DNA from: an uncultured Gammaproteobacteria bacterium
GTDB taxonomy: Bacteria > Patescibacteriota > Microgenomatia > UBA8517 > UBA10165
Direction: 5' to 3'
Length of the DNA stretch: 64,000 bases
Assembly (NCBI GenBank): GCA_964472675.1
Contig: CAYYLO010000004.1
Coordinates: 1,602-65,601, forward strand
The position numbers and the translations under genes are program-made. The notes under the pieces were generated by a model. That model had not been told where the DNA came from. It searched no databases and saw only the letters and a program-made list of their open reading frames with translations. Below are positions 36,852-53,551 of this stretch, piece by piece. Position 1 is the stretch's first letter, and every line of letters starts with the position of its first letter.

Positions 36852-37559
36852 TTGGAAAAAACTTTAAAAATTGGTTACTATGATATTGCAGTGTTTACAC
36901 GACTTCCCTGGTTTTTGCCTCCTATATTAGTTTTTGCAGCTTTATTCGTACTTTTTAATACTACAACCAATAAATCCGGTTCTATTATTTCCGGTTGTGG
37001 ATTTTCCAACGTTTCTGGCGATTTTGTCTCCAGTCAGACTGCCTACTTTGAGGGCAACAAGGTTTCTGCTCCAAAGCAAGATAACAACATCAAATTAGCC
37101 AAAGTGTTAGGGGCAGAGACAGGAGGGGAAAAATGGATTGAGGTTAATTTAACGGAGCAAAAGTTAATTGCTCATGAGGGCGATAAAGTATTTTTAGAAA
37201 CTAAAATATCTTCAGGCTTTCCCTGGACACCAACTCCGGAGGGAGAATTTACGATCTGGGGTAAGTTCCGCTATACCAAAATGGAGGGTGGATCTGGCAA
37301 ATATTACTATTATTTACCCAACGTTCCTTACGTTATGTTTTTTGAAAATTCTGATGTTGTAGCCAAAAGTGGTTATGGCTTGCATGGAACCTATTGGCAT
37401 AGCGACTTTGGTAAACCGCGTAGCCATGGCTGTGTGAACTTGCCCACATCTATTGCTCAGCAATTGTTTTACTGGACTGGACCGGTTTTACCTTCAGATA
37501 AGGGTACGGTTCGGGCAGGCCCCAATAATCCAGGAACCCGTATTGTCATCCACAAGTGA
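36852..37559 (+). CDS. L,D-transpeptidase (YkuD domain) protein
   Basis: The catalytic HGCVNLP motif (with preceding SHGC) and an N-terminal TM helix. Confidence 0.8.
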   Translation: MEKTLKIGYYDIAVFTRLPWFLPPILVFAALFVLFNTTTNKSGSIISGCGFSNVSGDFVSSQTAYFEGNKVSAPKQDNNIKLAKVLGAETGGEKWIEVNLTEQKLIAHEGDKVFLETKISSGFPWTPTPEGEFTIWGKFRYTKMEGGSGKYYYYLPNVPYVMFFENSDVVAKSGYGLHGTYWHSDFGKPRSHGCVNLPTSIAQQLFYWTGPVLPSDKGTVRAGPNNPGTRIVIHK

Positions 37560-37695: not shown

Positions 37696-40152
37696 ATGGC
37701 TAATGAATTTGACATAAAACAAGCTAAAATCCACACCCTTCCGGTTGTAGCGTTACGTGGTTCTGTTGTTTTTCCTCGTACAGAAAGTATCCTCACCTTC
37801 GGCCGTCCCAAGACAAAAGCTGCTGTTCAGGCAGCATACTCAGGAGACAGATTGTTGGCTATTTTTACTCAAAAAGATGCCAGGATTTCAGATCCTGTAC
37901 CGGATGATTTATACGAAGTAGGAAGTTTGGTCGAAGTTCAACAGATTATGCCGGCTGACGAAGAAATTCATGTACTGGTTATTGGTAAAGCTCGCATTGG
38001 AATTTCAGAAGTCGTGGCGCAAAATCCATTCGCCGTATACAAGGTCCATGTTTTTGAAGAAAACCTGACGACAACAGCAGAAGAAGAAGCCAGAGCACGG
38101 CATTTGGTTGGCTTATTTGAGAAAGCGATTCGTTTGGGAAAGCCTGCCGACGTTCAAACTGTAATGCGACTTTTATCTTCAAAAATTGAAGTGGCAGAGC
38201 TGGTTGACCAAATTGCCTACCTTTTAGACGTCAAAACTCCGCAAAAGCAGGAAATTTTGGAAACTCTCGACCTGTCTACAAGATTGAAAAAAGTTGAAGA
38301 TTTGTTGGGTCGGGAAGTGGGTATCCTGGAACTTGAGCGTACAATTTCTTCTAAAACGCAAAAAAGATTTGAAGAGCAGATGAAGAAAGCGATGCTCAAG
38401 GAGCATCAAAAAACAATTCAACAAGAACTGCGGGGCTTGGGAGAAGATGATGGGGGAGACGAAGAAATTGACGAATTGCGTCGCAAGATAAAAGAAGTTG
38501 GAATGCCGCGCGATGTGCGCAAAAAGGCAGAAAAAGAGCTAAAACGTTTGGTTCAAATGTCTCCTAATCATCCGGAGAGCGGGTATGTCAGGAATTATTT
38601 GGACTGGTTGGTTGAAATGCCCTGGAGTATAAAGTCTTCAAATGACATTTCTTTAAAACAGGCAGGTGCAATTTTGGATAATGACCATTATGCCTTGAAA
38701 AAAACTAAAGAGCGTATTTTAGAATTTTTGGCTGTAATGAAGCTTAAAAGTGAATCGCAAAAAGCTCATGATTCAACTTTGAATACTGAAGAAGAGGCGG
38801 AAACTATGGAAGGTACGCCGACAATACTTTGCTTTATTGGGCCTCCAGGGGTAGGTAAAACTTCAATCGGTCGTTCAATTGCTCATGCTTTGGGCCGGAA
38901 ATTTGTACGTGTTTCGTTGGGAGGAGTGCGCGACGAGGCGGAAATCAGAGGTCACAGGAGAACTTATGTGGGGGCACTGCCTGGAAGAATTATCCAGGGT
39001 ATAAAAAATGCCGGGACAAAAAACCCTGTATTTATGCTGGACGAGATTGACAAACTTGGCAATGACTTTCGGGGAGACCCGTCTTCTGCTCTGTTGGAAG
39101 TCTTGGATCCTGAGCAAAACAGGGAATTCTCAGATCACTATTTGGAAGTACCCTTCGATCTTTCCGAGGTTATGTTTATTTGCACTGGGAATGTTTTGGA
39201 TACTATTCCTCCAGCCTTGAGAGACAGAATGGAGATCATCCGTTTCGTGGGATATACAGAAGACGAAAAGTACAATATTGCCAAAGATTATCTCTGGCCA
39301 AAACAACTTAAAAATCACAGTCTTCCTGAAGATATACAAATTTTTTCTACAGCTTTGCGGGAGATTATAAATAGGTACACGCGCGAAGCAGGCGTTCGGA
39401 ATTTGGAAAGGAATTTAGCGACGATAGCAAGAAAACTTGCCAGAGACATTGCGGAAGGTAAAAAAGGTGTTAAACATGTGGGGAAAGTAGATTTGCACAA
39501 GCTCTTGGGGCCAGCACAGTTTACGTCACTTTTAGCTGAGAAAAAAGATGAAGTCGGAATTTCGACCGGGTTGGCTGTTACTCCCGTAGGGGGAGAAATA
39601 ATTTTTGTGGAGACTGCTCTCATGCCGGGCAAGGGGAAGCTTACTTTAACTGGCCAGCTGGGAGATGTTATGCGCGAATCTGCAATAGCGGCTTTCTCCT
39701 ATGCAAGAAGTCATTCGTCTGATTTGGGCATAAGCGACAAAGTTTCCAAAGTGACTGATGTTCATATTCATGTTCCCGAAGGCGCAGTACCGAAAGACGG
39801 TCCGTCTGCTGGTGTGGCTATGGCAACATCTTTAATTTCAGCTTTAACTGGCACAAAGACCAGGCGAGATGTGGCCATGACTGGAGAGATAACTTTGCGC
39901 GGGAGGGTTATGGAAATTGGTGGGGTTAAAGATAAGGTAATCGCAGCTCATCGAGCCGGGATCAAGACTGTTGTTTTGCCTAAAGATAATCAAAAAGATA
40001 TGGATGACGTACCAGAGAAAGTTAAACGAGATATCAAATTTATTTTCGCTTCGCACCTTGACCAGGTGCTAGAAGTGGCAATCCCCGCTTTTAACCATAA
40101 ACCACATCGTACCCCTTCTGTCCCTATCCCCTCAAGCTACATAGCAGGCTGA
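37696..40152 (+). CDS. lon: ATP-dependent Lon protease
   Basis: LON N-domain, Walker A GPPGVGKTS, and the protease S-K dyad region KDGPSAGVAMATSLISALTG. Confidence 0.95.
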   Translation: MANEFDIKQAKIHTLPVVALRGSVVFPRTESILTFGRPKTKAAVQAAYSGDRLLAIFTQKDARISDPVPDDLYEVGSLVEVQQIMPADEEIHVLVIGKARIGISEVVAQNPFAVYKVHVFEENLTTTAEEEARARHLVGLFEKAIRLGKPADVQTVMRLLSSKIEVAELVDQIAYLLDVKTPQKQEILETLDLSTRLKKVEDLLGREVGILELERTISSKTQKRFEEQMKKAMLKEHQKTIQQELRGLGEDDGGDEEIDELRRKIKEVGMPRDVRKKAEKELKRLVQMSPNHPESGYVRNYLDWLVEMPWSIKSSNDISLKQAGAILDNDHYALKKTKERILEFLAVMKLKSESQKAHDSTLNTEEEAETMEGTPTILCFIGPPGVGKTSIGRSIAHALGRKFVRVSLGGVRDEAEIRGHRRTYVGALPGRIIQGIKNAGTKNPVFMLDEIDKLGNDFRGDPSSALLEVLDPEQNREFSDHYLEVPFDLSEVMFICTGNVLDTIPPALRDRMEIIRFVGYTEDEKYNIAKDYLWPKQLKNHSLPEDIQIFSTALREIINRYTREAGVRNLERNLATIARKLARDIAEGKKGVKHVGKVDLHKLLGPAQFTSLLAEKKDEVGISTGLAVTPVGGEIIFVETALMPGKGKLTLTGQLGDVMRESAIAAFSYARSHSSDLGISDKVSKVTDVHIHVPEGAVPKDGPSAGVAMATSLISALTGTKTRRDVAMTGEITLRGRVMEIGGVKDKVIAAHRAGIKTVVLPKDNQKDMDDVPEKVKRDIKFIFASHLDQVLEVAIPAFNHKPHRTPSVPIPSSYIAG

Positions 40153-40376: not shown

Positions 40377-43300
40377 ATGGACAAGCTAAAACGGATATTA
40401 TCCCTAACGACACTTTTGCTGGTGCTTAGTAACAGTATACTTCCATATTACTCTTCAGCAAATGTGGTTTTTGCACAAGAAGTAAATGCAACACCTGCCG
40501 CTACTTCGGAAGTGGACGAACCACTTCAGACTTCTTCTGCGCCCACACCAACACCAGAACCAACACCTTCTGAAATTCTTACACTAACACCAACACCAAC
40601 TCCTACTCCTGAAACTGAACTTACTCCAATGCCGGCTGAACAAGAAACAACTGACAACGCTCTACCTGCACCAACCCCTACACCTACACTTTCTGTTGAA
40701 CAGACTGTTATTTCCACACCAATCCCAGTGCCTGTGCCTGCACCTGCACCTGTGCTATTAGCTTGGAAGAATATTGATTCAGCAACAGTTGAAACTATGG
40801 ATAATGTAGAAGCTAACAAAGATTACACTGCTCCTCAAAATGATAAGGTGAAAGTTAACTTTACCAAACTTCCTGAGATTGCTGGAAAACTAACTATTAA
40901 AGAAATTAAATTGTCTTCTAGCCAGGTGGAACAGTTGAAAGCTGTTTCAGACACAGCTTATGAAATTACTTCCACTATGGCTAACGGAACATTTAACTAT
41001 GACTTAACCCTGCCTTTATCAGAGCAAGCCAAAGGCAAGAAGCTGGAAGTAAAAACAGCGGAATCGCAAGAAAAGCTGGACAAAGCACAAACTGTTAATG
41101 AGCCAAAAGAGGAAAAAGCGGATACAATTGCTATTAAAGATTTAAACCATTTTACAGTCTTTGTTATTACCACCCCAGATCCTGACACTACTCAAAAAGT
41201 CTTGATTAATGAAGTAGTTCCAAATCCTCTGAATGGGGCAGAATGGATTGAGCTTTTTAATAACAGCACTCAAGCTACAAACTTAGGAGTGGGAAGCGGT
41301 TGGACTATCAGAAATTCTACTGGCGATACCAGGTCTTTAAGCTCCTTAGGCACTGTTACTGCTTCCGGCAGAGTAGTTTTTGAGGCTCCTGCCAATTGGT
41401 TAAGCAATACTGCCCCTGAAACTATTACTCTATCAAATGAGTTAGGAACACCGGTTGATACAGTGACCATATCTTTAACCTCCCCGGGTTTTGTCATTGA
41501 TCATTACCCGCTGGCTAACGAATCAGTTGGAAGAAAAACAGACGGAGTTGCAGAATGGGTCATCTTTACTATTCCCACCAGAGGCACAGCTAATGTTTTG
41601 CCTAAAACGACAACTAGCCTCTCCGAAGCAGGTCCAATTGCCCCTGAAGGTGGTCTTATGGCAGGTTTCCCATCCTGGTACAAAGACTCTAATGGTTTGG
41701 CGCTTGATTTAATGGAAGCAGCTGATGGTTTTGGTATCTCTGATCCAGTTGATCCATCTAATCCATTTTCACAAACTATTGGCTTTAATGCTGAAGGATT
41801 TTGGTGGTCAGCTGAGGCTTCTATTGACCGCCCAGTAGGCACACGCACCATACTGGTGTTGGCAGTTGAGGCTGCCTTTGCCGGAGAAGCAGCAGTTGAT
41901 GGGGAACAATCAGTGCAAAACAGGCTCAGATACAGGATTGATGGACTGGTACCTGGTGAAACCTATACCATTACCCACCCTTTTGGCACTGTGAAAGAAG
42001 TTGCTGAAGATGATGGGACAATCAATGTCACTGATGACATTGGATGCTTTGCCGGAGGAGGAGTGACCTGCAATCAAACAGCTTCCCCTAACTTTGCCAC
42101 AGCTTTGAACGGTCAAGTAGGGCCATTCTTAACCTGGACCACCTTTAATACTAACCCAGCTTTAACTGACCCTCAACTTACTAATCCTGCCAACCCAAAC
42201 AGAAGATATGTTGGTAATCCCACTATTGAACATGAGGTAACAGGCAGCCCAACAGGCAATAACTTCTTCAGAGTCCAAGGCAAGGATGTGGGTGGCCCTG
42301 GAGTTAACCAAATCCAAACCAACTTATTTGCAGTTTCAGGAAGGCTGGCAGATACAAATGCTCCTGTGATTACCCTTTTTGGCAGTAATCCTGTAAATGT
42401 CAATCAAAATGCTTCTTATATTGATGCTGGAGCAAGTGCTTTAGATGATCTGGGCGGTAACTTAACCGGCAATATTGAAGTTAGCGGTTTGCCTGTTGAC
42501 ACTTCTACCATTGGTGTAAAAACAGTCACTTATACTGTAACTGACAGCGCAGGCCGTACATCCCAAGCAACCAGAACTGTTAATGTAGTTAATCTGGTAG
42601 CGGTAGGAGAAGCAGATACTGTTGCTCCCTTAATCACTATACTTGGGGCAAATCCTGCTTTTGTCACTGTTGGCACACCATATACTGATGTTGGAGCAAC
42701 AGCTTTAGATAATGTTGACGGAGATATTACCGGAAGTATTATCACCACGGGTTTGCCGGTTATTACATCAACAGTTGGCACATTTACTGTTACTTATAAT
42801 GTGGCGGATAGCGCAGGTAATGCAGCAATTCTAGCAAAAAGGACTGTTAATGTGGTAGCAGATACTACTGCTCCTGTAATTACTATGCTGGGGTCAAATC
42901 CTGTCAATATCTTTACAGGCGCTGCTTACTCAGATGCCGGAGCCACAGCCTTGGATGATGTTGACGGAGATATTACCGGGAGTATTGTTACTACGGGTTT
43001 GCCTGTCGATACGTCAAAAGCAGCTACTTTTACCATTACTTATGAAGTAGTTGATTCAGCTGGCAATCCTGCCATTGCAAAAAGAACAGTTAAGGTAGCA
43101 GAAACTTTGCCCGCCAGCCTCTCCGAAGCAGGTCCAATTGCCCCTGAAGGTGGTCTTATGGCAGGTTTCCCATCCTGGTACAAAGACTCTAATGGTTTGG
43201 CGCTTGATTTAATGGAAGCAGCTGATGGTTTTGGTATCTCTGATCCAGTTGATCCATCTAATCCATTTTCACAAACTATTGGCTTTAATGCTGAAGGATT

Positions 43301-45812
43301 TTGGTGGTCAGCTGAGGCTTCTATTGACCGCCCAGTAGGCACACGCACCATACTGGTGTTGGCAGTTGAGGCTGCCTTTGCCGGAGAAGCAGCAGTTGAT
43401 GGGGAACAATCAGTGCAAAACAGGCTCAGATACAGGATTGATGGACTGGTACCTGGTGAAACCTATACCATTACCCACCCTTTTGGCACTGTGAAAGAAG
43501 TTGCTGAAGATGATGGGACAATCAATGTCACTGATGACATTGGATGCTTTGCCGGAGGAGGAGTGACCTGCAATCAAACAGCTTCCCCTAACTTTGCCAC
43601 AGCTTTGAACGGTCAAGTAGGGCCATTCTTAACCTGGACCACCTTTAATACTAACCCAGCTTTAACTGACCCTCAACTTACTAATCCTGCCAACCCAAAC
43701 AGAAGATATGTTGGTAATCCCACTATTGAACATGAGGTAACAGGCAGCCCAACAGGCAATAACTTCTTCAGAGTCCAAGGCAAGGATGTGGGTGGCCCTG
43801 GAGTTAACCAAATCCAAACCAACTTATTTGCAGTTTCAGGAAGGCTGGCAGATACAAATGCTCCTGTGATTACCCTAAATGGTTCTAACCCGGTTGAAGT
43901 GACCCAAAATGAAGCTTATGCTGACAGCGGCGCAACCGCAATTGATAATTTTGATGGTAATCTGACAGCCAGTATTGTAACGACTGGTTTGCCGGTTAAT
44001 ACCTCTGTAATAGGCGTAAAAACCATTACCTATACTGTTTCTGACAGGGCCGGCAATACTGCTATTGCTCAAAGAACTATTAATGTAGTGGCAGCTACCC
44101 CTCCAACTCCAGAACCTCCAGTTCCTCCTGTCCCAGCAGACGGTGCAGGGCAAGCAGATACAACATCTTTAGATGGGTTTTCCTCAACTACTAAGGGGTC
44201 TTATAAAACAGGAGACTTGATAGATATCACTGCTAATTTTGATAAGACTTTAGATGCAGAAAGCACCATGACAGTTGAACTAAGTAATGGTGTCCAAGTT
44301 ATCTTAAGCCAAGTTTCCGGATCAAAGTTAACAGGTACATATATTGTTGGGACAAATATTTCAGAAAACTCTGATAATTTAACTGTAGCAAAAATAATCT
44401 CCAGTAGTATTCAAGCTTCAGACACATTGCCTTCAATAAACTTAAGCAGCATTGTTGTTAATGTCAAAACTTCTGCAGAAGCTGCTGATAAGTCAGGCCA
44501 GGCTGATGTAAATAGTTTGTTGGAACTGGACAGTGAGACTGTTTTAGACATGGGTAGTAATTTAAGTACAGCCACAATAGAAGGCGCAATCACTATTGCT
44601 GGTTTGTCAAAACTGCTAAGTATATTTTCTAATGGTGATCTGGTGAATCAAAATCTAACCTTACCTCAAATTATTGGTGATAAATTGGTTATGGTAAGTA
44701 AGGCAGTCAGGTTAAACTCCGGCCCTAGTGGTTCATTGATTACCTTATCCAATAAAAACCTGTCAACTGTTAAGTTGTCTATAGTAAGTGGAACAACAGT
44801 ATTAGGAGAAAGTAGCTGGAACGGCAAGGTCAATCCTCCTTCTATTGTTACAAATACTGGTATTGCGCCTAGCGGGTTCAAACTCGGTGATTTTGCAATT
44901 GAGGTAGGTTATCCGGAAGGAATCCTGCTTTTTGACCAATCAGTAACCATCCTTTTATCAGGCGTCAATGGCCCTGTCGGATATAAACCCTCAGGCTCTG
45001 ACACTTGGGTTAAGATGGCAAATTGCTTGGGCACTTTTGACAGTCCGCTTAAGCCAGTTTTCCCTGGGGAATGCGCAATTTCTAATGGGGCAGACACCAA
45101 AATCTATACATATCATTTAACTTCTTTTGCCAATTTACAGGAAATTCCCCCTGTTTCCATCCCAACCCCAACACCAGCTATTGTAGTAGCAAGCTCATCT
45201 AATACAGACACTAACACTAATACAACTTCATCCAATTCTAATCTCTCTAATTCTTCCTCAAACAATACTTCTAACAATCCTTCCACTCCTGTTTGTACTG
45301 ATTCCAAGCCAGGCAGTGCTCCTATCTTGCTTTCTGCCGTCACCAGCGGTCCTAACCAGGTGACCTTAACCTGGTCAAAAGCATCTGATCCTGTTTCCCA
45401 TTATTCCATAGTTTATGGCTTGTCGGCAGGCAATCCTATTTATGGAAATACTAATGTTGGGGGGAAGGATACTACCTCATATGCAGTTGGCGGTTTGTCT
45501 GGCGGAACAACTTATTACTTCAAAGTCAGGGCAGGCAATGGTTGTAATGGCAGTGAATATTCAAATGAACTGTCTGCCGCACCGGACGGAGGAACAATAA
45601 ATAGTCCTGCAACAGGATTTACCCGGGGGTTATTGGGTGCTCAGACTGAAGAAGAAACGAAGACTAGCGAGCCTGGAGTCTTAGGTGTCAATGTAAATGG
45701 GCTTGCTTCAAAGAGCAAAGGAACCTGGGCAATACAGCTAATGTTGGCAGCTTTAGCAGCTTTGGGTGTTGGTTATTTTAAGTTCTTTTACAGGAAAAAA
45801 TTAAATGGGTAG
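40377..45812 (+). CDS. Giant secreted multidomain surface protein (1811 aa). Domain order: signal peptide, PT-rich linker, lamin-tail domain, a duplicated unknown domain, Ig-like (DUF5011-type) repeats, an SNT-rich linker, a two-Cys FN3-like module, and a C-terminal TM anchor.
   Basis: - Signal peptide: MDKLKRILSLTTLLLVLS.
- Lamin-tail motif: VLINEVVPNPLNGAEWIELFNNS...GW.
- Ig-like repeats: APVITLxGSNPV...Y.DAGATA.D..DG(D/N)(I/L)TG.I...GLPV.TS..G...VTY.V.DSAGN.
- C-terminal TM helix AIQLMLAALAALGVGYF followed by KFFYRKK. Confidence 0.85.
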   Translation: MDKLKRILSLTTLLLVLSNSILPYYSSANVVFAQEVNATPAATSEVDEPLQTSSAPTPTPEPTPSEILTLTPTPTPTPETELTPMPAEQETTDNALPAPTPTPTLSVEQTVISTPIPVPVPAPAPVLLAWKNIDSATVETMDNVEANKDYTAPQNDKVKVNFTKLPEIAGKLTIKEIKLSSSQVEQLKAVSDTAYEITSTMANGTFNYDLTLPLSEQAKGKKLEVKTAESQEKLDKAQTVNEPKEEKADTIAIKDLNHFTVFVITTPDPDTTQKVLINEVVPNPLNGAEWIELFNNSTQATNLGVGSGWTIRNSTGDTRSLSSLGTVTASGRVVFEAPANWLSNTAPETITLSNELGTPVDTVTISLTSPGFVIDHYPLANESVGRKTDGVAEWVIFTIPTRGTANVLPKTTTSLSEAGPIAPEGGLMAGFPSWYKDSNGLALDLMEAADGFGISDPVDPSNPFSQTIGFNAEGFWWSAEASIDRPVGTRTILVLAVEAAFAGEAAVDGEQSVQNRLRYRIDGLVPGETYTITHPFGTVKEVAEDDGTINVTDDIGCFAGGGVTCNQTASPNFATALNGQVGPFLTWTTFNTNPALTDPQLTNPANPNRRYVGNPTIEHEVTGSPTGNNFFRVQGKDVGGPGVNQIQTNLFAVSGRLADTNAPVITLFGSNPVNVNQNASYIDAGASALDDLGGNLTGNIEVSGLPVDTSTIGVKTVTYTVTDSAGRTSQATRTVNVVNLVAVGEADTVAPLITILGANPAFVTVGTPYTDVGATALDNVDGDITGSIITTGLPVITSTVGTFTVTYNVADSAGNAAILAKRTVNVVADTTAPVITMLGSNPVNIFTGAAYSDAGATALDDVDGDITGSIVTTGLPVDTSKAATFTITYEVVDSAGNPAIAKRTVKVAETLPASLSEAGPIAPEGGLMAGFPSWYKDSNGLALDLMEAADGFGISDPVDPSNPFSQTIGFNAEGFWWSAEASIDRPVGTRTILVLAVEAAFAGEAAVDGEQSVQNRLRYRIDGLVPGETYTITHPFGTVKEVAEDDGTINVTDDIGCFAGGGVTCNQTASPNFATALNGQVGPFLTWTTFNTNPALTDPQLTNPANPNRRYVGNPTIEHEVTGSPTGNNFFRVQGKDVGGPGVNQIQTNLFAVSGRLADTNAPVITLNGSNPVEVTQNEAYADSGATAIDNFDGNLTASIVTTGLPVNTSVIGVKTITYTVSDRAGNTAIAQRTINVVAATPPTPEPPVPPVPADGAGQADTTSLDGFSSTTKGSYKTGDLIDITANFDKTLDAESTMTVELSNGVQVILSQVSGSKLTGTYIVGTNISENSDNLTVAKIISSSIQASDTLPSINLSSIVVNVKTSAEAADKSGQADVNSLLELDSETVLDMGSNLSTATIEGAITIAGLSKLLSIFSNGDLVNQNLTLPQIIGDKLVMVSKAVRLNSGPSGSLITLSNKNLSTVKLSIVSGTTVLGESSWNGKVNPPSIVTNTGIAPSGFKLGDFAIEVGYPEGILLFDQSVTILLSGVNGPVGYKPSGSDTWVKMANCLGTFDSPLKPVFPGECAISNGADTKIYTYHLTSFANLQEIPPVSIPTPTPAIVVASSSNTDTNTNTTSSNSNLSNSSSNNTSNNPSTPVCTDSKPGSAPILLSAVTSGPNQVTLTWSKASDPVSHYSIVYGLSAGNPIYGNTNVGGKDTTSYAVGGLSGGTTYYFKVRAGNGCNGSEYSNELSAAPDGGTINSPATGFTRGLLGAQTEEETKTSEPGVLGVNVNGLASKSKGTWAIQLMLAALAALGVGYFKFFYRKKLNG
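41616..43876. repeat. Perfect 761-nt direct repeat (41616-42376 and 43116-43876) with a 1500-nt period inside giant gene 1
   Basis: Line-by-line comparison shows 100% identity over 761 nt. It encodes a duplicated ~250-aa domain (LSEAGPIAPEGG...NAPVITL). The antisense ORF pairs 41504-41851/43040-43351 and 41910-42116/43410-43616 are artefacts of this repeat. Confidence 0.9.
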
Positions 45813-48800
45813 AAAAGTCTTATCAGCATTTTTGATTTTAGTTGTTGTTTTTTCGAATGGATTTTTAACTTTGGCACAGATTGCTTTAGCTGCTCCAACT
45901 GGTGAAAATAAAACGTTTTATTTTCGAAACCAAAGTGCGCAGTTGCCCAGTAGCCATGTTTTAAGTACCACTGCTCCAACTTCAGGAAATTCTCAAAACA
46001 CTTCCATAACCAGCACTGACTCTCCATCATTCCGGCATTTTCATCCGGGAATAACCAGTTTTCAACATATTTTTGCTACTGAACCAGCTCATACCTTGCC
46101 AGTTGACTTGGCCTCATGGATTTCTGATGTGCCTCTTGATGGTACTTTCCAGGCAGGCAGCTGGAAATTTATAGTACACAAAAACGACAATATCAAAGGG
46201 GAAGTCTCAGTCCCCCATTTTAATGTTTACAAAAGTCCCAGCAATACCAGTTTGGATCAGGCAACTTTTCTTTTTGATGTGGAAGGGCCTGACTGGTGGA
46301 CATCAAGCGATGAGCAGCTTAATTTTTCTACACCCTTACTTAGCCAATTTGAATTTAATAATGCATATTTGGTAGTGCAGCTTTTTGACCAATGCAAATC
46401 AGGTTGTAACGGTGGGAAAATTATGACAGTTTTTGAAGATGGCACGTCTGCTGCTACCCAAACCAGGATAGAAACACCATTATTTGTCCCAGCTGGCAGC
46501 AATGAACCTGTGCCCCCGCCTTCTGCCCCAGCTCCAGAACCTTCTGCACCTCAACCTCCAACCCCCCCTGCAGATATTACTGCCCCTATAATCACTATTT
46601 TGGGAGATAGTCCTGTAACAGTCTTTTTAGGCTCTACTTATATAGATGCTGGTGCTACCGCCATTGATAATATTGACGGTGCTATTTCTGTTGAGACAAC
46701 CAATGCAGTGAATACTGCTGTTTTAGGAGGATATTCTGTAATTTACAAGGCTACTGATAGCGCAGGTAATACTAGTGTTCCTGCTATCAGGACTGTGAAT
46801 GTGGTAGCACCACCAGCCCCAGTGCTTCCACCTCCAGCTCCTATTGTACCTCCTTTACCTCCCTTAGATACCATTGCTCCTGTAATAACTATGCTTGGCT
46901 CATCTCCTTTAGATGTGACAATTGGCTCTGTATACAACGATGCCGGAGCTACAGCTTTGGATAATATAGATGGTGATCTGGCTGCTAAGATTAGTGCTTC
47001 CGGATTACCTATTAATACTGCTAGTGCAGGAACATTTACCATTACTTATAATGTGGCGGATAGCGCAGGCAATACTGCCACACCTGTTACTAGAATTGTG
47101 AATGTGATAGCAGCCCCAGAAGAACCAGCTGCCCCAGCTCCAGAGCCTCCTCCACCTCCAGTCCAACCTTCTGCTCCTAAAAACTCCCCTCCAGTGGTGG
47201 AACCTATCCCTTCTCAAACCATTACGGTTGGGACTCCAGTCTCCTTTAAAGTAATAGCTACTGACACGGATGGGGACGCCTTAACTTACTCTTTAGGCCC
47301 TAATGCTCCATTGGGTGCGACAATTGATCCTAAGACAGGCGCTTTTTTTTGGCTACCGCAAGTTGTAGGCACAACAAATTTTGATATTCTGGTTTCTGAT
47401 GGAGTTAATACTCCGGTTACAACTGGCCACTTGATTGAAAACCGGAACTTAGGAGTTGATGGCATTTTAGGCACAGCAGACGATATTTTCATTGGTGGCA
47501 TGGCTACTTGGGGGATGGTCAAGGCTCAAGCGCGGGACTTTTTAGGCATATTGTTAGATGATTTAGATGTGCTCGACTTGCCACTTTTGGCAACTGACGC
47601 GTATGGCAATTTTATCAAAGGCCCGAATGGTTTTCCACAGCTGGTGATTGATGGCGGTTTACTAGAAGGTAATCCAGCCTCCCCTGTTGATGCCTCAAAA
47701 GCAGTCCGGACCCACCATCCATTTATAGTAGATATCAGCCACAATGCTAATCCTGTTAACTCGCGGGGTGTGCCTCTTAAAGCTGATTCGGATAATGTGA
47801 TTGGACTATCTGAACCAGGCACATATGACAATGAGTTGTTGGATGCGCATTTTATGGCCGGAGACGGTCGTGTTAATGAAAATATTGGCTTAACAGCAGT
47901 CCACCATATTTTTCATTCTGAGCACAACAGGTTGGTGGAGTACGCTAAAAATGTGATACTGGATACAGGTGATTTAGCTTTTTTAAGCCAATGGTTAGTA
48001 GCAGGTAGTGCACCAGATACTTTTCCTCAAACACCTCAAGAAATTACTGCTTTGTCTTGGAATGGGGAACGGTTGTTTCAGGTGGCTAAATTTGGTACGG
48101 AAATGCAATACCAACATTTGGTGTTTGAGGAATTTGCCCGCAAAGTTTCCCCGCAAGTCAATATATTTTCAGGCTATGACAATAGCATTGATCCGGCCAT
48201 TATGGCTGAATTTGCCCACACAGTCTATCGTTTTGGCCACAGTTTGTTAACTGACACCGTTGCGCGTACTAATGAGGATGGCACCACCAATGACATTGGT
48301 TTAATACAGGCCTTCTTAAACCCATTAGAGTTTGTAGCAAGCGGGGATACGCCCATTAAGGCTGCAGGCGCTATTGTTTCAGGCATGGTTAACCAGGTTG
48401 GCAATGAGATTGACGAATTTGTCACAGAATCTTTGCGAAGTAACTTGTTAGGTCTGCCTTTGGATTTGGCTACTATTAATTTAGCCCGGGGACGGGATAC
48501 TGGTGTTCCTCCGCTGAACTCAGCCAGAAAGCAATTTTTTATGGCGACTGGTGGAGATTCGTCTTTAAAGCCATATACCAGCTGGGTAGATTTTGGTTTA
48601 AATATTAAACACCCCCTCTCCCTAATAAATTTTATTGCAGCATATGGCACACATCCGACTGTTTTAAATGCAGCCAGCTTACAAGAAAAACGTGCGGCGG
48701 CTGCTTTGTTAGTTGATGGAGGAGAAGGCGCGCCAGAAGATAGAGTGGATTTCCTAAACAGCACTGGTAATTGGGTTAGTACTGGTTTAGATACTGTTGA

Positions 48801-51800
48801 CTTTTGGATCGGTGGTTTAGCGGAAAAACAAATGCCTTTTGGGGGGCTTTTAGGCCCTACCTTTAATTTTGTGTTTGAGACCCAAATGGAAAAACTGCAA
48901 GATGGAGATAGATTTTATTACCTATTCAGAAATGCCGGCTTAAACTTTTTAACTTCTCTTGAGCAAAACTCCTTTGCAGAATTGGTGATGAGAAACACTG
49001 AAGGCGTCAAGCACACGCCACATGATATTTTTTCGCATCCGGCTTTTACTATTGAAGCTGCCGATATTGATCCTTTGAACCCGGCAACGTTTCCGCCTGA
49101 CACAATTATTATGCCTGATGGCACTATCCGCTACACAGGGGTGGAGCATATTGTGATGGGAGGTACAGCGGGTAATGATAAACTGCATTCATCTGAAGGC
49201 GATGATACTCTTTGGGGAGATGAGGGTAATGATAGGCTGGAAGGTGGAGCAGGCAATGATGCAATTTTGGGCGGTGCAGGTGATGATATTTTAACTGATA
49301 TTTTTGGCGATGATAATATTAAAGGCGGCGAAGGCAATGATGTGATCAACGCAGGAGTTGGCATTGATCTGATTTTAGGAGGGGATGGCCAGGATTTTGT
49401 GGTGGCAGGCAGGGATTCAAAAGAGACTTTTGGAGGGGCTGGTAATGATTTTATTATAGCAGGAGACGGAGCTGATACAGTGTTTGGCAATGAGGGGGAT
49501 GATTGGATTGAAGGCGGTGACCAGGCGGATTTATTGCAGGGTGATAATGGCGATCCTTTCCAAAGCTCACCCACCATTGGCAATGACGTGATCATAGGCG
49601 GCGGGGGCAATGATGATTATGACTCAGAATCCGGCGATGATATTATGCTGGCCGATCCGGGCATTGAACGGAACGAAGGCATGCTTGGTTTTGACTGGGT
49701 GATATACAAAAATGATCCGCAGCCTGCCAATGCAGATATGTTTATTACAGGCTTGTTGCCGCCAACAGTAAATGATTTGCGTGACCGGTTTGATTTGGTT
49801 GAAGGCTTGTCCGGAGGCAGCCTTGACGATATTTTAAGGGGCGATAACCGCACCAGTGTTGGTTTTTTGGACCATGCTTTAAATAACCCTGCCCAAATTG
49901 CTTTGATTAACGGGTTACAAAATTTGCTGGGGGATGGGGTGAGCTCATTTTCAGGAGGAAATATCATATTGGGCGGAGCGGGTAGTGACGTAATTGAGGG
50001 TCGGGGCGGTGATGACCTGATTGATGGTGATGCCTGGCTGAATGTGCGTTTAAGTGTGGGGGATATTAGTGCAGACAGTATGACAGAACTTCAAACTGCC
50101 ATGTTTGAAGGCAAAATAAATCCCGGACAAATAAAAATTATCCGCGAGATATTAACCTCCCAAACAGAAGATGACATTGATACAGCAGTTTTTTCAGGTA
50201 ATCTGGCTGATTACACCATCAGTCAGCCAGATGCTCTAGGTAGGATTACAGTAACAGATAATAGGAGAGAAGATGGAGGAGGAGGCAGAACTAGTGATGG
50301 TACAGATACCCTTCGCAACATTGAACGCTTGCAGTTTGCTGACCAGACTATAGATTTAAATAAGTCAAACAAAGTATCAGCTCCCGCCCTAGTAGATAAG
50401 ATCTCTGAGCCAGGTGTTAGTAATTTGAGATCAGGAGTAGGTTTGACCTTGATTAGGTCTGATCTGCAGTTTATTTTGGATCAGATTAAAATTGCCGAAG
50501 CTCATGCTCAAGGTGCGTTCTTGTCCGGCCTAATCCCCAAAGACGTTTTACCTTGGGGTTTGCGGACAGTTGATGGGACTTTCAATAACATTGTGTCCAA
50601 TCAATCTGAGTTTGGGGCGGCAGACAGGGTATTCCCCCGCCTGACCACACCAGTTTTTAGAAATGCGGAAAATGCAACTTTTGATTTGGATGGGCCAGGC
50701 CCTTTAACTTTAGGCCAGCCAACCTCTTATGCTCAAAATAACGGTTTTGTGTTTGACTCGCAACCCCGCTTGATCAGCAATTTAATTGTTGATCAAACCT
50801 TGGGCAATCCTGCTGCTCAAGCCGCCAGTGCGTTTAGCTTACCTGACCCACAAACTAATAGTTTATTTATCCCAAACATAGCTCCTGATATGGGATTGTC
50901 TGCATCTTTTAATTCCTGGTTTACCTTGTTTGGACAGTTTTTTGATCATGGGTTGGATTTAGTCAACAAAGGCGGTAGCGGTACAGTATTTATCCCGCTT
51001 GCTACTGATGACCCGCTTTTTAACCCTGCCAGCCCGTCTAATTTCATGGTTTTAACAAGAGCAACAAACCAACCTGGCCCGGATGGCGTGTTAGGCACAT
51101 TGGATGATATTCATGAACACACAAACCAAACATCTCCTTTTATTGACCAAAATCAAACTTACACCTCACATCCTTCACATCAGGTATTCCTCCGTTCATT
51201 TAATTTTAGACCGGCTAACAGTTTGTCAGTTTTGGCAAATATAACAGTTGCTCCAAAGATTTTCTCTGTTTTTGGACAAGGCAAGTTTACTTCCACAAAT
51301 GGGCAAACTATTACACCTAAAGTTGTTTCCCAGGGAATCTCTGTTGTTTCAGTGGAAGACGGCGGGGGAATACATTCTGTGACTGTACCGGATGGAACAG
51401 AGATTACCAAAAGCAATGGCAAAGACATCGATATCACTGCCTTAACAGCAGCGGTGCCTGCTATAGATTCCTTAACAGGAATGAATAAAGGAGTGGTGGT
51501 TAATGGCAAGTTGCAATGGGGGATTCCCAACCAGGGGTTGTTGTTTAGTAACCCAATTTCACTGGATATATTTGTTGGTACTGATTTAAATGGTCAGACT
51601 TTGGATGTGCTGCGTTCTGAAACTGGTACTGGTAATTGGACCAATGAGGGAATTGTGGCCCCTGCAACTTGTTTAGTGGCAAATGGCATGTGTACATTTC
51701 AGGCCACAAAAGCCTCAGTTTATATAGCTGCTCAAACTGTAGCTAGTGCTGGGGGAACAATTGGCAATGCTTCCCCAACAGATAACAATAATAGTAATAA

Positions 51801-52440
51801 TACACCCACGAACACATCTAATACAGCCACTAACACTAATACAATTTCATCCAGTTCTAATTCCTTTAACTCTTCCTCAAGTAACGGTTCCTCCACCCCT
51901 TCTAACGCTTCTGCTCCTGTTTGTACTGATTCCAAGCCAGGTAGTGCTCCTAAGTTACTTTCTGCCATAGTTACCGGTCCCAACCAGGTAACTTTAAGTT
52001 GGTCTAAGGCCCAAAATCCTGCAACCTATTACTTAGTAGCTTATGGAACTTCTTCTGAGAATCTACAATTTGGTAATCCTAACGTGGGTGGAGCTGATAC
52101 TACTTCATATGTGGTTAATGGCTTGTCCGGCGGAACGGCTTATTACTTTAAGGTTAGAGCTGGGAACAACTGCATGCCGGGAGAATTTTCCAATGAGTTG
52201 CCTGCAACAGTTGACGGAAGCGTAATTAGGCAGCCCGCCTCAGGGTTTACTGAAGGTGTGTTGGGAGTTAAAAAGGAAACACTCGACAACCCAACAATCG
52301 ACAAACCTGCTCTTGCTCCTACAACTTCCGAAAGTCGAAAGAACAGGATTTTCCAACTAACTTTAGCAGCGATGGTCTTATTAGCTATATCCTATGGTCT
52401 TTTTTATCGCCTTGCTAAAAGAGTAAGCCGACGGTTGTAA
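45805..52440 (+). CDS. Giant secreted multidomain protein (2211 aa). Domain order: signal peptide, Ig-like (DUF5011-type) x2, cadherin-like/He_PIG domain, animal-heme-peroxidase (peroxidase-cyclooxygenase superfamily) domain, RTX hemolysin-type Ca-binding repeats, an N-terminal-type peroxidase segment, an SNT-rich linker, a two-Cys FN3-like module, and a TM anchor. The 8-nt overlap with giant gene 1 suggests translational coupling.
   Basis: - Signal peptide: MGRKVLSAFLILVVVFS.
- Ig-like repeats: APIITILGDSPV, APVITMLGSSPL.
- Cadherin-like: PSQTITVGTPVSFKVIATDTDGDALTYSL.
- Peroxidase motifs: GDGRVNENIGLTAVHHIFHSEHNRLV (Arg/Glu heme-link motif), RFGHSLL (proximal His), LARGRDTGVP, VDFWIGGLAE, GDRFYY.
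- RTX nonapeptides: GGAGNDAILGGAGDDIL, GGEGNDVINAG, GGAGNDFIIAGDGADTVFGNEGDDWIEGG.
- After the RTX block: TVDGTFNN and FGQFFDHGLD (distal His), SPFIDQNQTYTS (Ca loop).
- C-terminus: TM helix plus basic tail. Confidence 0.85.
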   Translation: MGRKVLSAFLILVVVFSNGFLTLAQIALAAPTGENKTFYFRNQSAQLPSSHVLSTTAPTSGNSQNTSITSTDSPSFRHFHPGITSFQHIFATEPAHTLPVDLASWISDVPLDGTFQAGSWKFIVHKNDNIKGEVSVPHFNVYKSPSNTSLDQATFLFDVEGPDWWTSSDEQLNFSTPLLSQFEFNNAYLVVQLFDQCKSGCNGGKIMTVFEDGTSAATQTRIETPLFVPAGSNEPVPPPSAPAPEPSAPQPPTPPADITAPIITILGDSPVTVFLGSTYIDAGATAIDNIDGAISVETTNAVNTAVLGGYSVIYKATDSAGNTSVPAIRTVNVVAPPAPVLPPPAPIVPPLPPLDTIAPVITMLGSSPLDVTIGSVYNDAGATALDNIDGDLAAKISASGLPINTASAGTFTITYNVADSAGNTATPVTRIVNVIAAPEEPAAPAPEPPPPPVQPSAPKNSPPVVEPIPSQTITVGTPVSFKVIATDTDGDALTYSLGPNAPLGATIDPKTGAFFWLPQVVGTTNFDILVSDGVNTPVTTGHLIENRNLGVDGILGTADDIFIGGMATWGMVKAQARDFLGILLDDLDVLDLPLLATDAYGNFIKGPNGFPQLVIDGGLLEGNPASPVDASKAVRTHHPFIVDISHNANPVNSRGVPLKADSDNVIGLSEPGTYDNELLDAHFMAGDGRVNENIGLTAVHHIFHSEHNRLVEYAKNVILDTGDLAFLSQWLVAGSAPDTFPQTPQEITALSWNGERLFQVAKFGTEMQYQHLVFEEFARKVSPQVNIFSGYDNSIDPAIMAEFAHTVYRFGHSLLTDTVARTNEDGTTNDIGLIQAFLNPLEFVASGDTPIKAAGAIVSGMVNQVGNEIDEFVTESLRSNLLGLPLDLATINLARGRDTGVPPLNSARKQFFMATGGDSSLKPYTSWVDFGLNIKHPLSLINFIAAYGTHPTVLNAASLQEKRAAAALLVDGGEGAPEDRVDFLNSTGNWVSTGLDTVDFWIGGLAEKQMPFGGLLGPTFNFVFETQMEKLQDGDRFYYLFRNAGLNFLTSLEQNSFAELVMRNTEGVKHTPHDIFSHPAFTIEAADIDPLNPATFPPDTIIMPDGTIRYTGVEHIVMGGTAGNDKLHSSEGDDTLWGDEGNDRLEGGAGNDAILGGAGDDILTDIFGDDNIKGGEGNDVINAGVGIDLILGGDGQDFVVAGRDSKETFGGAGNDFIIAGDGADTVFGNEGDDWIEGGDQADLLQGDNGDPFQSSPTIGNDVIIGGGGNDDYDSESGDDIMLADPGIERNEGMLGFDWVIYKNDPQPANADMFITGLLPPTVNDLRDRFDLVEGLSGGSLDDILRGDNRTSVGFLDHALNNPAQIALINGLQNLLGDGVSSFSGGNIILGGAGSDVIEGRGGDDLIDGDAWLNVRLSVGDISADSMTELQTAMFEGKINPGQIKIIREILTSQTEDDIDTAVFSGNLADYTISQPDALGRITVTDNRREDGGGGRTSDGTDTLRNIERLQFADQTIDLNKSNKVSAPALVDKISEPGVSNLRSGVGLTLIRSDLQFILDQIKIAEAHAQGAFLSGLIPKDVLPWGLRTVDGTFNNIVSNQSEFGAADRVFPRLTTPVFRNAENATFDLDGPGPLTLGQPTSYAQNNGFVFDSQPRLISNLIVDQTLGNPAAQAASAFSLPDPQTNSLFIPNIAPDMGLSASFNSWFTLFGQFFDHGLDLVNKGGSGTVFIPLATDDPLFNPASPSNFMVLTRATNQPGPDGVLGTLDDIHEHTNQTSPFIDQNQTYTSHPSHQVFLRSFNFRPANSLSVLANITVAPKIFSVFGQGKFTSTNGQTITPKVVSQGISVVSVEDGGGIHSVTVPDGTEITKSNGKDIDITALTAAVPAIDSLTGMNKGVVVNGKLQWGIPNQGLLFSNPISLDIFVGTDLNGQTLDVLRSETGTGNWTNEGIVAPATCLVANGMCTFQATKASVYIAAQTVASAGGTIGNASPTDNNNSNNTPTNTSNTATNTNTISSSSNSFNSSSSNGSSTPSNASAPVCTDSKPGSAPKLLSAIVTGPNQVTLSWSKAQNPATYYLVAYGTSSENLQFGNPNVGGADTTSYVVNGLSGGTAYYFKVRAGNNCMPGEFSNELPATVDGSVIRQPASGFTEGVLGVKKETLDNPTIDKPALAPTTSESRKNRIFQLTLAAMVLLAISYGLFYRLAKRVSRRL

Positions 52441-52456
52441 GCCTACTAATAAGAAT

Positions 52457-52478
52457 ATACAACCCGTTTCAAAACTCG
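52457..52478. repeat. Right copy of the 22-nt motif ATACAACcCGTTTCAAAACTCG, 17 nt after the giant gene 2 stop
   Basis: See the left copy at 40153-40174. Confidence 0.7.
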
Positions 52479-53551
52479 TGCGTCAATTTACTTTTCAAAA
52501 AGGGGTTGTTAGAATAGTTTTAATGGAAGCTCCATCAGCAGTATCGGATAGACCTATACTTTACAAACCAACTGATACGGAACTTGCCAGGGAATCGGTA
52601 GAGGAAGCAGGAATAAGATATTTTGCTGCACTGGCAAGCTTGGCTAGAACTCCAGAAGAGCTGCGCGCATTAGTTCGTCTTCATGCGCAAAAAGCAGCAG
52701 AAGCTGGCGGTCCGGTTTTGGGTGAAGTTTTAACTGGATTCTCTGAAGAATTATCAAGTGCTTCTCAACCTGTATTAGAAGAACCGGAAGGCACTCCAAC
52801 ACTAGAAAAAAGAACTGTGCAAACGCCTATGGGGGAACTTACTCTTTATCCTCAAAGAAAAGAAGCAGCCTCCCCTCTTCTTCCAAAAGAAAAGGGGGCA
52901 GTTAGGTTGCCTGATGTAGTATTTGAAATACTAGAAACTCTTGCGAAAGATCCGCGTGTCGTAGTTAACTATGAAGACTTAATTAAAAATGTCTGGAAAT
53001 ATGAAAGCTATAATAAGAAAACAGACCTGTCAATGGTAAGAACCCGAGTATATGTTCTTCGCCAATTATTAGGAGATAGCGGAGAAGGTGTGGCTTCTGC
53101 AAGAAAATTCAAATTTATTCACACCTTTGAAGAAGGTATTTCTTTAACAGATCATCTTACTGTTGACCAAATTATCCGCCTAACCCCACAGGAAAGAAAA
53201 GATTTACATATTGCAAGCGCTACTATTCCTGGAAGAAATAGACAGCCAAAACAAGTGTTTCTTGATGCCGCACGGGGAATTGCAATTGTGCCAGATTCGG
53301 CAACAAACCCATATAAATATTTGTCAACGCTGGAAGCCGATGTCCTGGAAGCATTGATGCGTCATCCACAATCTATACTTCCCAAAGATATGTTTATTAA
53401 TATTATAGAAAAACACGGATATATCTCAAAGACAGACGATAAAACATCTGCTTTAAAAGCACTTGTGTATCGTTTAAGACAAAAGCTGGAAGAGGATCTT
53501 CCAATTTATACTATTGATAATGGCCATACGCTTACAGAAAGAATGCATTAA
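52478..53551 (+). CDS. Tandem OmpR/PhoB-type winged-helix (trans_reg_C) DNA-binding protein with no receiver domain. ATG at 52523 is the likely real start; the GTG at 52478 overlaps the repeat motif.
   Basis: There are two copies of the trans_reg_C pattern: VRLPDVVFEILETLAKDPRVVVNYEDLIKNVWKYESYNKKTDLSMVRTRVYVLRQLL and ...LSTLEADVLEALMRHPQSILPKDMFINIIEKHGYISKTDDKTSALKALVYRLRQKLEE. No D-box/receiver motifs are present. Confidence 0.55.
   Translation: MRQFTFQKGVVRIVLMEAPSAVSDRPILYKPTDTELARESVEEAGIRYFAALASLARTPEELRALVRLHAQKAAEAGGPVLGEVLTGFSEELSSASQPVLEEPEGTPTLEKRTVQTPMGELTLYPQRKEAASPLLPKEKGAVRLPDVVFEILETLAKDPRVVVNYEDLIKNVWKYESYNKKTDLSMVRTRVYVLRQLLGDSGEGVASARKFKFIHTFEEGISLTDHLTVDQIIRLTPQERKDLHIASATIPGRNRQPKQVFLDAARGIAIVPDSATNPYKYLSTLEADVLEALMRHPQSILPKDMFINIIEKHGYISKTDDKTSALKALVYRLRQKLEEDLPIYTIDNGHTLTERMH

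Follow-up and report, generated by a model that had tools for sequence, protein, structure and literature searches.

The prevailing view of bacteria of the Candidate Phyla Radiation (CPR) is that they live on other cells, to which they are attached, and this makes their giant surface proteins prime candidates for host contact. To our knowledge, the means by which such proteins are held on a cell with a single membrane are almost unstudied. In Gram-positive bacteria, the LPXTG signal combines a short motif, a hydrophobic segment and a basic tail, follows a Pro/Thr/Ser-rich region that spans the wall, and is processed by sortase, while in Escherichia coli PBP5 and PBP6 are anchored by C-terminal amphipathic helices. 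The present analysis concerns two adjacent giant proteins of an ultra-small bacterium from groundwater, here called A and B, encoded in a stretch of 64,000 nucleotides (positions 1,602 to 65,601 of contig CAYYLO010000004.1, assembly GCA_964472675.1; hereafter the window). Both end in the same cassette, which consists of a Ser/Asn/Thr-rich linker, a fibronectin type III (FN3) domain with two Cys, a disordered spacer, a hydrophobic helix and a basic tail. The explanation preferred here, and considered probable, is that this is a lineage-wide display cassette, exported by Sec and anchored by stop-transfer, in which the FN3 domain has a conserved partner of its own.

The cassette resembles the LPXTG signal in that it sits at the C-terminus of varied surface enzymes and adhesins, has low-complexity sequence upstream and contains a hydrophobic helix followed by Lys/Arg; a divergent FN3 branch even carries LGATG or MAATG with an adjacent sortase. 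In contrast to that signal, the cassette of A and B lacks the pentapeptide, includes a folded and conserved FN3 domain, and has no sortase in the window (tblastn, TLxTC signature), while other members exchange the helix for amphipathic peptides or tails with three transmembrane (TM) helices. The PGF-CTERM/archaeosortase A and PEP-CTERM/exosortase signals share the Ser/Thr-rich linker, short motif, TM helix and basic tail, and likewise occupy the very C-terminus of surface proteins. Unlike their motifs, which abut the helix, the P-A-x-G-F of the cassette lies inside the ordered end of the domain, about 35 aa before the helix (40 in A, 38 in B). The original prediction had set the module apart from LPXTG, PEP-CTERM and PGF-CTERM, and this holds. 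The tails of A and B have neither an LPXTG-like pentapeptide next to the helix nor a PEP motif before it. Protein B has LAPTT 13 aa before its helix, and its orthologue in the Blackburnbacteria contig MHBW01000009.1 (L001) has LAPVS there. The whole proteins A and B matched no sorting-domain model of NCBIfam, and six isolated tails matched none at E ≤ 10, GlyGly-CTERM/rhombosortase and the other CTERM models included, although the HMMER filters may miss very weak matches.

In structure, the best matches are the juxtamembrane FN3 domains of DCC, neogenin, BOC/CDO and receptor tyrosine phosphatases. Proteins of the DCC/neogenin type also combine a signal peptide and a large ectodomain with an FN3 domain beside a single TM helix. 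They are eukaryotic, however, with 15–28% identity, and none of them has the two-Cys staple, an end of the GPAxGFxxGVLG type or a low-complexity linker, so that the likeness is best taken as an analogy of layout, with no family membership beyond the fn3 superfamily. The PBP5/PBP6 anchors offer a plausible model for the members with amphipathic tails, which may sit peripherally on the outer face of the cytoplasmic membrane; such anchors are absent from A and B, and the resemblance is one of amphipathicity, without homology. Within the CPR, C-terminal TM helices have been proposed as tethers of FnIII-type and chaperone-type envelope proteins in a bacterium without an outer membrane (bioRxiv 10.64898/2026.03.03.709456). 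PamR, PamC and PamD of the saccharibacterial Pam pilus combine Ig/FnIII folds with a C-terminal TM helix, which in the view of those authors tethers extracellular structures to the only membrane (bioRxiv 10.64898/2026.03.03.709456). The Pam proteins belong to a different CPR lineage, have tandem RbmA-like FnIII domains, and are not reported in modular use on many passengers; no sequence relationship to the cassette is evident, and the two are likened by layout alone. Neither Pfam nor NCBIfam has a cassette-specific model, and the cassette is undescribed in the literature searched on FN3, sortase and C-terminal TM helices of CPR and Microgenomates.

The C-terminal cassette of A and B

The segment 40377–52440 (window positions; all features are on the + strand) is filled by two co-directional open reading frames (ORFs). 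ORF A (40377–45812, 1811 aa) combines a putative signal peptide, an LTD domain and a passenger of four Bact_surface_Ig-like/HYR domains (both assigned by Pfam), and the C-terminal cassette. ORF B (45805–52440, 2211 aa) has a putative signal peptide and then, according to Pfam, Ig-like domains, a haem peroxidase domain of the animal type (210 bits over three stretches) and RTX calcium-binding repeats ahead of its cassette. The N-termini, judged by eye and hydropathy, are hydrophobic and resemble signal peptides; their n-region is basic and their end AQ/A-like (aa 1–35 of A, 40377–40481; aa 1–33 of B, 45805–45903).

When the last 511 aa of the two proteins are compared, significant similarity sets in abruptly at S(T/A)PVC and extends as far as the hydrophobic helix, and upstream of S(T/A)PVC there is no alignment. 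BLASTP gives 93 identities in 171 positions (54%, E 2e-60) for the C-termini, and tblastn gives 65% identity over the 121-aa core, in agreement with the value of about 65% reported originally. Both Cys are present in each protein, 83 residues apart (C1640/C1723 in A, C2040/C2123 in B). The common architecture that had been proposed for the two C-termini is thus borne out by BLASTP, Pfam and hydropathy alike, and no copies of the cassette other than these two occur in the window.

In protein A, the Ser/Asn/Thr low-complexity linker (aa 1606–1637, 45192–45287) leads into the two-Cys FN3 domain and its C-terminal motif SPATGFTRGLLG (aa 1638–1754, 45288–45638; Pfam fn3 and family alignments), with the Cys1 codon at 45294 and the Cys2 codon at 45543. 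An acidic, Thr-rich spacer follows (aa 1755–1783, 45639–45725), and then the TM helix WAIQLMLAALAALGVGYFKFFY (aa 1784–1805, 45726–45791; hydropathy). The gene closes with the basic tail RKKLNG and stop (45792–45812), and its final 8 nt (45805–45812, ATGGGTAG) are shared with the beginning of B. Protein B has the same order. Its linker (aa 1988–2037, 51766–51915) precedes the two-Cys FN3 domain with the motif QPASGFTEGVLG (aa 2038–2154, 51916–52266; Pfam fn3, AlphaFold2 and Foldseek; Cys1 codon at 51922, Cys2 codon at 52171), a disordered spacer (aa 2155–2181, 52267–52347), the TM helix IFQLTLAAMVLLAISYGLFY (aa 2182–2201, 52348–52407; hydropathy and AlphaFold2) and the basic tail RLAKRVSRRL with stop (52408–52440). 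By hydropathy, there is in each protein a single hydrophobic segment of 20–22 aa in this region, followed by a tail with 3–5 Lys/Arg.

The domain is a genuine member of the fn3 superfamily. Each protein has one Pfam fn3 match (PF00041, gathering threshold 25), near the C-terminus: residues 1647–1733 of A with 52.5 bits and residues 2047–2133 of B with 41.2 bits. AlphaFold2 modelled the 122-aa module of B (from an alignment of 37 sequences) as a seven-strand sandwich, strands A–G, with a mean predicted local distance difference test (pLDDT) score of 93.3; confidence stays at 90 or above to about residue 118, which takes in the post-domain motif QPASGFTEGV. A Foldseek search of the PDB returned 208 chains at E ≤ 0.001; the best 50 of the 208 are all FN3, with the BOC, CDO, DCC and neogenin domains on top (E 1e-5, TM-score about 0.65). 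In a model of the C-terminal 240 aa of B, four zones can be told apart: pLDDT is 43–56 in the linker, 96–98 in the FN3 domain and motif, 50–63 in the spacer, and 87–95 in a terminal helix at residues 208–239. From these zones follows a layout of flexible linker, compact domain, flexible spacer, membrane helix and basic tail.

Conservation within the domain is uneven. The F strand and F–G turn score highest (0.92/0.91), together with the C' strand and C'–E loop (0.91/0.76), and the C–C' loop scores lowest (0.43). Invariant or nearly invariant in the family alignment are C7, D9, P12, P16, W33, Y43, G57-N-P-N-x-G62, L74, Y80, F82, V84-R-A-G-N88, C90, P92-G93 and S96. In the standard FN3 topology, the N-terminal segment, the C'–E loop and the F–G turn lie at the same pole, which makes both a Cys1–Cys2 disulfide and a joint conserved patch plausible. 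The domain is probably stapled by a disulfide from the N-terminal strand to the F–G turn, and closed by the GPAxGFxxGVLG motif. Between orthologues, FN3 domains are 91–95% identical and passengers 72–82%, while the spacer, TM helix and tail of B stand at 46%. Between B and its L001 orthologue, the corresponding values are 91% for FN3, 82% for the passenger and 46% for spacer, helix and tail.

Distribution and exchangeable anchors

The cassette was defined by a low-complexity linker, a C-x(80–83)-C FN3 domain with GNPNVGG and RAGNxCxPG, a GPAxGFxxGVLG end, and an anchor within about 60–165 aa of Cys2. A and B carry every element, with deviations in A at GNTNVGG and GCNGS. A genome scan, in which each species was represented by a single genome, confirmed 128 loci; 80 of these were retained. 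All named carriers are CPR bacteria of the Microgenomates type (Blackburn-, Levy-, Davies-, Shapiro-, Collier-, Curtiss-, Ames-, Roizman- and Gottesmanbacteria). A protein search with the B module returned 58 clusters, assigned where named to Microgenomates, Gottesmanbacteria or Patescibacteria. That search yielded only proteins of at most 323 aa, whereas the genome scan has many carriers above 1000 aa, and it is therefore not used to claim that small proteins dominate. A profile search of 1.84 billion representatives gave 67,710 matches at E ≤ 0.001, swamped by generic FN3 arrays with up to 58 repeats (8 or more among the 150 matches listed), and is uninformative for this subfamily. Many of the cassette contigs (L003, L011, L013, L018, L021, L024 and others, from binchicken co-assemblies) bear the title 'uncultured Gammaproteobacteria bacterium'; their gene content suggests that these titles are placeholders or wrong.

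In all 82 cassette proteins compared (157–3439 aa) the module is single and C-terminal. Cys2 lies 63–165 aa from the C-terminus, and the Cys spacing is 80–83 in 79 of them. The complete proteins (n = 67) have a median length of 815 aa, with 32 of at least 1000 aa and 27 of at most 450 aa. Low complexity upstream is a family trait, the 37 aa before Cys1 consisting of S (20%), T (17%), G (13%), P (8%), A (7.5%) and N (7%). What the cassette carries varies widely: subtilases with a fervidolysin prodomain, cadherin/Big_9 arrays, LTD with a beta-helix, LTD with Ig-like/HYR domains, CHB_HEX_C/Fn3_assoc, MBG, and haem peroxidase/RTX. These passengers are mutually unrelated. There are also proteins that consist of the cassette alone (signal peptide, linker, FN3 and anchor, e.g. 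P0002 and P0014). The claim of a dedicated C-terminal anchoring module is in this respect strengthened, and the simpler case allowed for at the outset, a module confined to the two paralogues, does not apply, since it recurs at 128 loci of other genomes.

The relationship between the two copies in the window points the same way. Identity between the modules of A and B (66%) is no higher than their identity to modules of other lineages (62–71%); in each other's lists of module identity, B ranks 5th and A 7th of 126, and in the FN3 tree the two domains fall into different clades. These comparisons indicate that the tail is not a private duplication of A and B.

The part behind the domain varies. 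A single TM helix with a basic tail ends 51 of the 82 proteins, a Cys-rich multi-TM tail ends another 10, and about 19 have a Phe-rich amphipathic peptide of some 16 aa or something else. The amphipathic tails follow the pattern F..K(V/I)..FF..(L/I)FK(R/K), e.g. SFLTKVVKFFTNIFKK, with a hydrophobic moment of 1.5–2.0. Members of this kind without a TM helix are encoded at L014 (9782–10504), L011, L019, L057, L067 and L078, and include P0005 and P0009–P0018; they are spread over several clades of the FN3 tree. Such exchange of whatever follows the domain speaks against a single shared enzyme acting at the membrane. A divergent two-Cys FN3 branch (P0055, P0057, P0058 and a 350-aa protein of L020) has VLGA..LGATG or MAATG immediately ahead of its TM helix and basic tail (L081, 5001–6304; L082; L083; L020, 16466–18056), and in four contigs a sortase gene overlaps the 3' end of its gene. 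P0057 is a fusion, or a mis-call, of the divergent FN3 gene and the sortase gene.

Display, sorting and the VLG motif

In the explanation preferred here, A and B would be type I (bitopic) surface proteins of a monoderm bacterium of the Microgenomates. An N-terminal signal peptide would send the chain through Sec, until the C-terminal helix and basic tail stop transfer. The helix would then stay in the cytoplasmic membrane and, following the positive-inside rule, the basic tail would face the cytoplasm. On the outer side there would be, in this order, a disordered spacer of about 30 aa, the compact FN3 domain and a long disordered linker rich in Ser/Thr/Asn/Gly/Pro. The passenger would thus be displayed on a flexible stalk, of the adhesin type (LTD/Ig-like) in A and a haem peroxidase with RTX repeats in B. 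A signal peptide and a stop-transfer helix with a basic tail would suffice for anchoring. The export route, the topology of A and B and the disulfide are inferred from sequence. The FN3 domain would be the functional constant and membrane attachment the exchangeable part; its conserved pole (N-terminal segment, GNPNVGG and RAGNGCxPG) would contact an envelope component or its own copy. A partner or self-association of this kind is proposed because the anchor can be exchanged, FN3 keeps about 65% identity across lineages, and cassette-only proteins exist.

Several points weigh against this account as it stands. The signal peptides were called from visual inspection and hydropathy only. The neighbourhoods cover the 64-kb window and 20 kb per locus, so that machinery encoded elsewhere in a genome is possible. 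The existence of cassette-only proteins means that the FN3 domain does more than carry passengers. The remaining points concern the VLG motif. The domain end GPAxGFxxGVLGxxT is kept in 112 of 134 members, and its GVLGxxT part is far better conserved than a plain domain end needs. A second [VI]LG occurs in 20 of 76 spacers against 1.1 expected (maximum 6 in 1000 shuffles), mostly 1–11 aa before the TM helix; this may point to a linear recognition site, for which a mere tether offers no explanation.

In A and B, the first motif stands 27–29 aa before the TM helix (family median 33). Protein A has both copies, the second within EPGVLGVNV of the spacer (GVLG at 45675–45686), and B has the first only. 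The same sequence, (G/E/Q)-V-L-G-(A/E)-x-T, also precedes the C-terminal TM anchors of non-FN3 proteins beside sortase genes (L081, 2471–5014, 847 aa; L061, 1225–1974, 249 aa, with a canonical LPETG); among the non-cassette proteins with C-terminal anchors in the loci, it is found in 2 of 10, a small sample. As a sortase site itself the motif was rejected, for wherever a sortase adjoins, VLG lies upstream of LPETG, LGATG or MAATG. A factor other than sortase could recognise the motif or cleave there.

Clustering of neighbouring genes (80 loci, 1120 ORFs) revealed no universal neighbour family of the cassette. The most frequent is a CAP-domain membrane protein (15 of 80 loci), usually accompanied by a small DUF5656-like membrane protein (13 of 80). 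It is followed by an S26 signal peptidase (8 of 80), Wzy_C (PF04932, 54.5 bits; 7 of 80, in all cases directly downstream of small amphipathic-tail members), VanZ (7 of 80), TasA-like and SipW-like genes (5–6 of 80) and sortase (2 of 80, within 10 kb). Glycosyltransferase and dTDP-sugar genes also recur around the loci, and among the recurrent families no archaeosortase- or exosortase-like gene was seen. In the window itself, none of CAP, DUF5656-like, S26, SipW-like, Wzy_C, VanZ, NAGPA or TasA-like was found. A specific processing or anchoring machinery, as the original prediction had envisaged, is so far unsupported, there being no match to a sorting signal and no universal neighbour in the 80 loci. 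The idea is unlikely, but still alive because the VLG motif recurs near the membrane and one divergent branch is coupled to sortase.

The most serious competitor gives that motif a definite role: the cassette would be a true sorting signal, cleaved at GVLG(A/E)xT by a dedicated enzyme, either a transpeptidase like sortase or a protease for shedding or maturation, and the protein would then be linked to the wall or released. Helix and basic tail would do no more than retain the precursor, as in LPXTG, PEP-CTERM and PGF-CTERM. The conservation of the motif, the excess of second copies near the helix and its presence before the anchors of non-FN3 proteins beside sortase genes (L081 and L061) all speak for this, as do the classical retention part formed by helix and basic tail and the divergent branch (P0055 and the 350-aa protein of L020), where LGATG or MAATG goes with a 3'-overlapping sortase gene. 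Nevertheless, the helix of A and B has no LPXTG-like pentapeptide beside it, the first motif is separated from it by a fast-evolving spacer of variable length, and AlphaFold2 places that motif in the ordered domain. Where real sortase motifs exist, VLG is upstream of them and hence not the sortase site; sortase is near 2 of 80 loci and absent from the window, no NCBIfam CTERM model matches, and about a quarter of the members have an amphipathic peptide in place of a TM helix. On balance, a true sorting signal is considered unlikely, though it has to be taken seriously. A broader version has a slim chance: the cassette would be the address tag of an envelope attachment system specific to Microgenomates, with the FN3 pole docking on a fixed envelope structure such as the underside of an S-layer, the peptidoglycan or some complex in the membrane. 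At the juxtamembrane VLG(A/E)xT an enzyme would mature, cross-link or shed the protein, and the different anchors would be alternative presentations of one tag.

The low-complexity linker and the sugar-related neighbours raise a further alternative, that of a glycan-bearing or wall-spanning stalk, in which the linker is glycosylated and FN3 docks a membrane glycosyltransferase or a ligase of the Wzy_C type, which resembles O-antigen ligase and O-oligosaccharyltransferase. Every member examined is rich in S/T/G/P/N before Cys1, and Wzy_C adjoins small amphipathic-tail proteins; this gene is limited to 7 of 80 loci, however, never with the TM-anchored type of A and B, and near these two there is neither Wzy_C nor a glycosyltransferase in the window. 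This makes the stalk distinctly improbable. Purely local history, i.e. duplication or gene conversion of adjacent genes whose common tail would have no function other than that of any FN3 spacer and TM helix, might be read from the adjacency of A and B with their 8-nt overlap, and from homologous linker DNA that is 81% identical over 88 nt (45196–45283 in A, 51815–51902 in B) against 72% for FN3 DNA. The linker value suggests some local exchange between A and B, and the linker may have undergone local gene conversion, given that the FN3 domains are in different clades. As a full explanation, a recent tandem duplication is rejected in view of the 128 loci, the ranks of module identity and the FN3 tree; moreover, about 65% identity, two invariant Cys and a 15-residue end motif would not persist in a generic FN3 across so many lineages. 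Local history only is therefore highly improbable.

Should the display cassette be the correct explanation, with no processing involved, an annotation rule would follow: carriers are membrane-tethered type I proteins, and neither secreted toxins nor sortase substrates. In any case, the cassette allows the displayed proteome of Microgenomates to be listed from genomes alone. The domain is compact (about 115 aa) and confidently modelled, with a conserved face that points to an envelope partner, and the short conserved motif lends itself to direct tests of processing. If the address-tag alternative were true, a major lineage without cultured members would possess a novel system of protein sorting.

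Genomic surroundings

The overlap of the two genes suggests co-transcription, and possibly coupled translation. Directly upstream of A are genes for a YkuD-type L,D-transpeptidase (36852–37559) and Lon protease (37696–40152); at other loci, YkuD does not recur beside the cassette. Directly downstream of B (52478–53551) lies a gene for a protein with two winged-helix domains of the OmpR/PhoB type (Trans_reg_C), without a receiver domain, which is syntenic in L001 and L085. A Fic gene and housekeeping genes complete the surroundings in the window. The L001 contig is syntenic with the window and carries orthologues of both A and B.

At other loci (L029, 7169–11790; L073, L018, L009 and L063), operons begin with a TasA-like gene, a SipW-like S26 peptidase and an Ig-like protein, and end with a small cassette protein of the three-TM, Cys-rich-tail type, a CAP-domain membrane protein and a His-rich membrane protein of about 85 aa. 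From their gene content, these operons look like a locus for fibre or envelope assembly.

ORF A contains a perfect, in-frame direct repeat of 761 nt (41616–42376 and 43116–43876, offset 1500 nt), by which about 250 aa are duplicated. Protein B is recorded exactly in a second assembly (GCA_016187265.1, contig JACPKD010000021.1), where the contig begins inside A. Because of this contig start, the repeat may be one that breaks assemblies, or it may be an assembly artefact itself.

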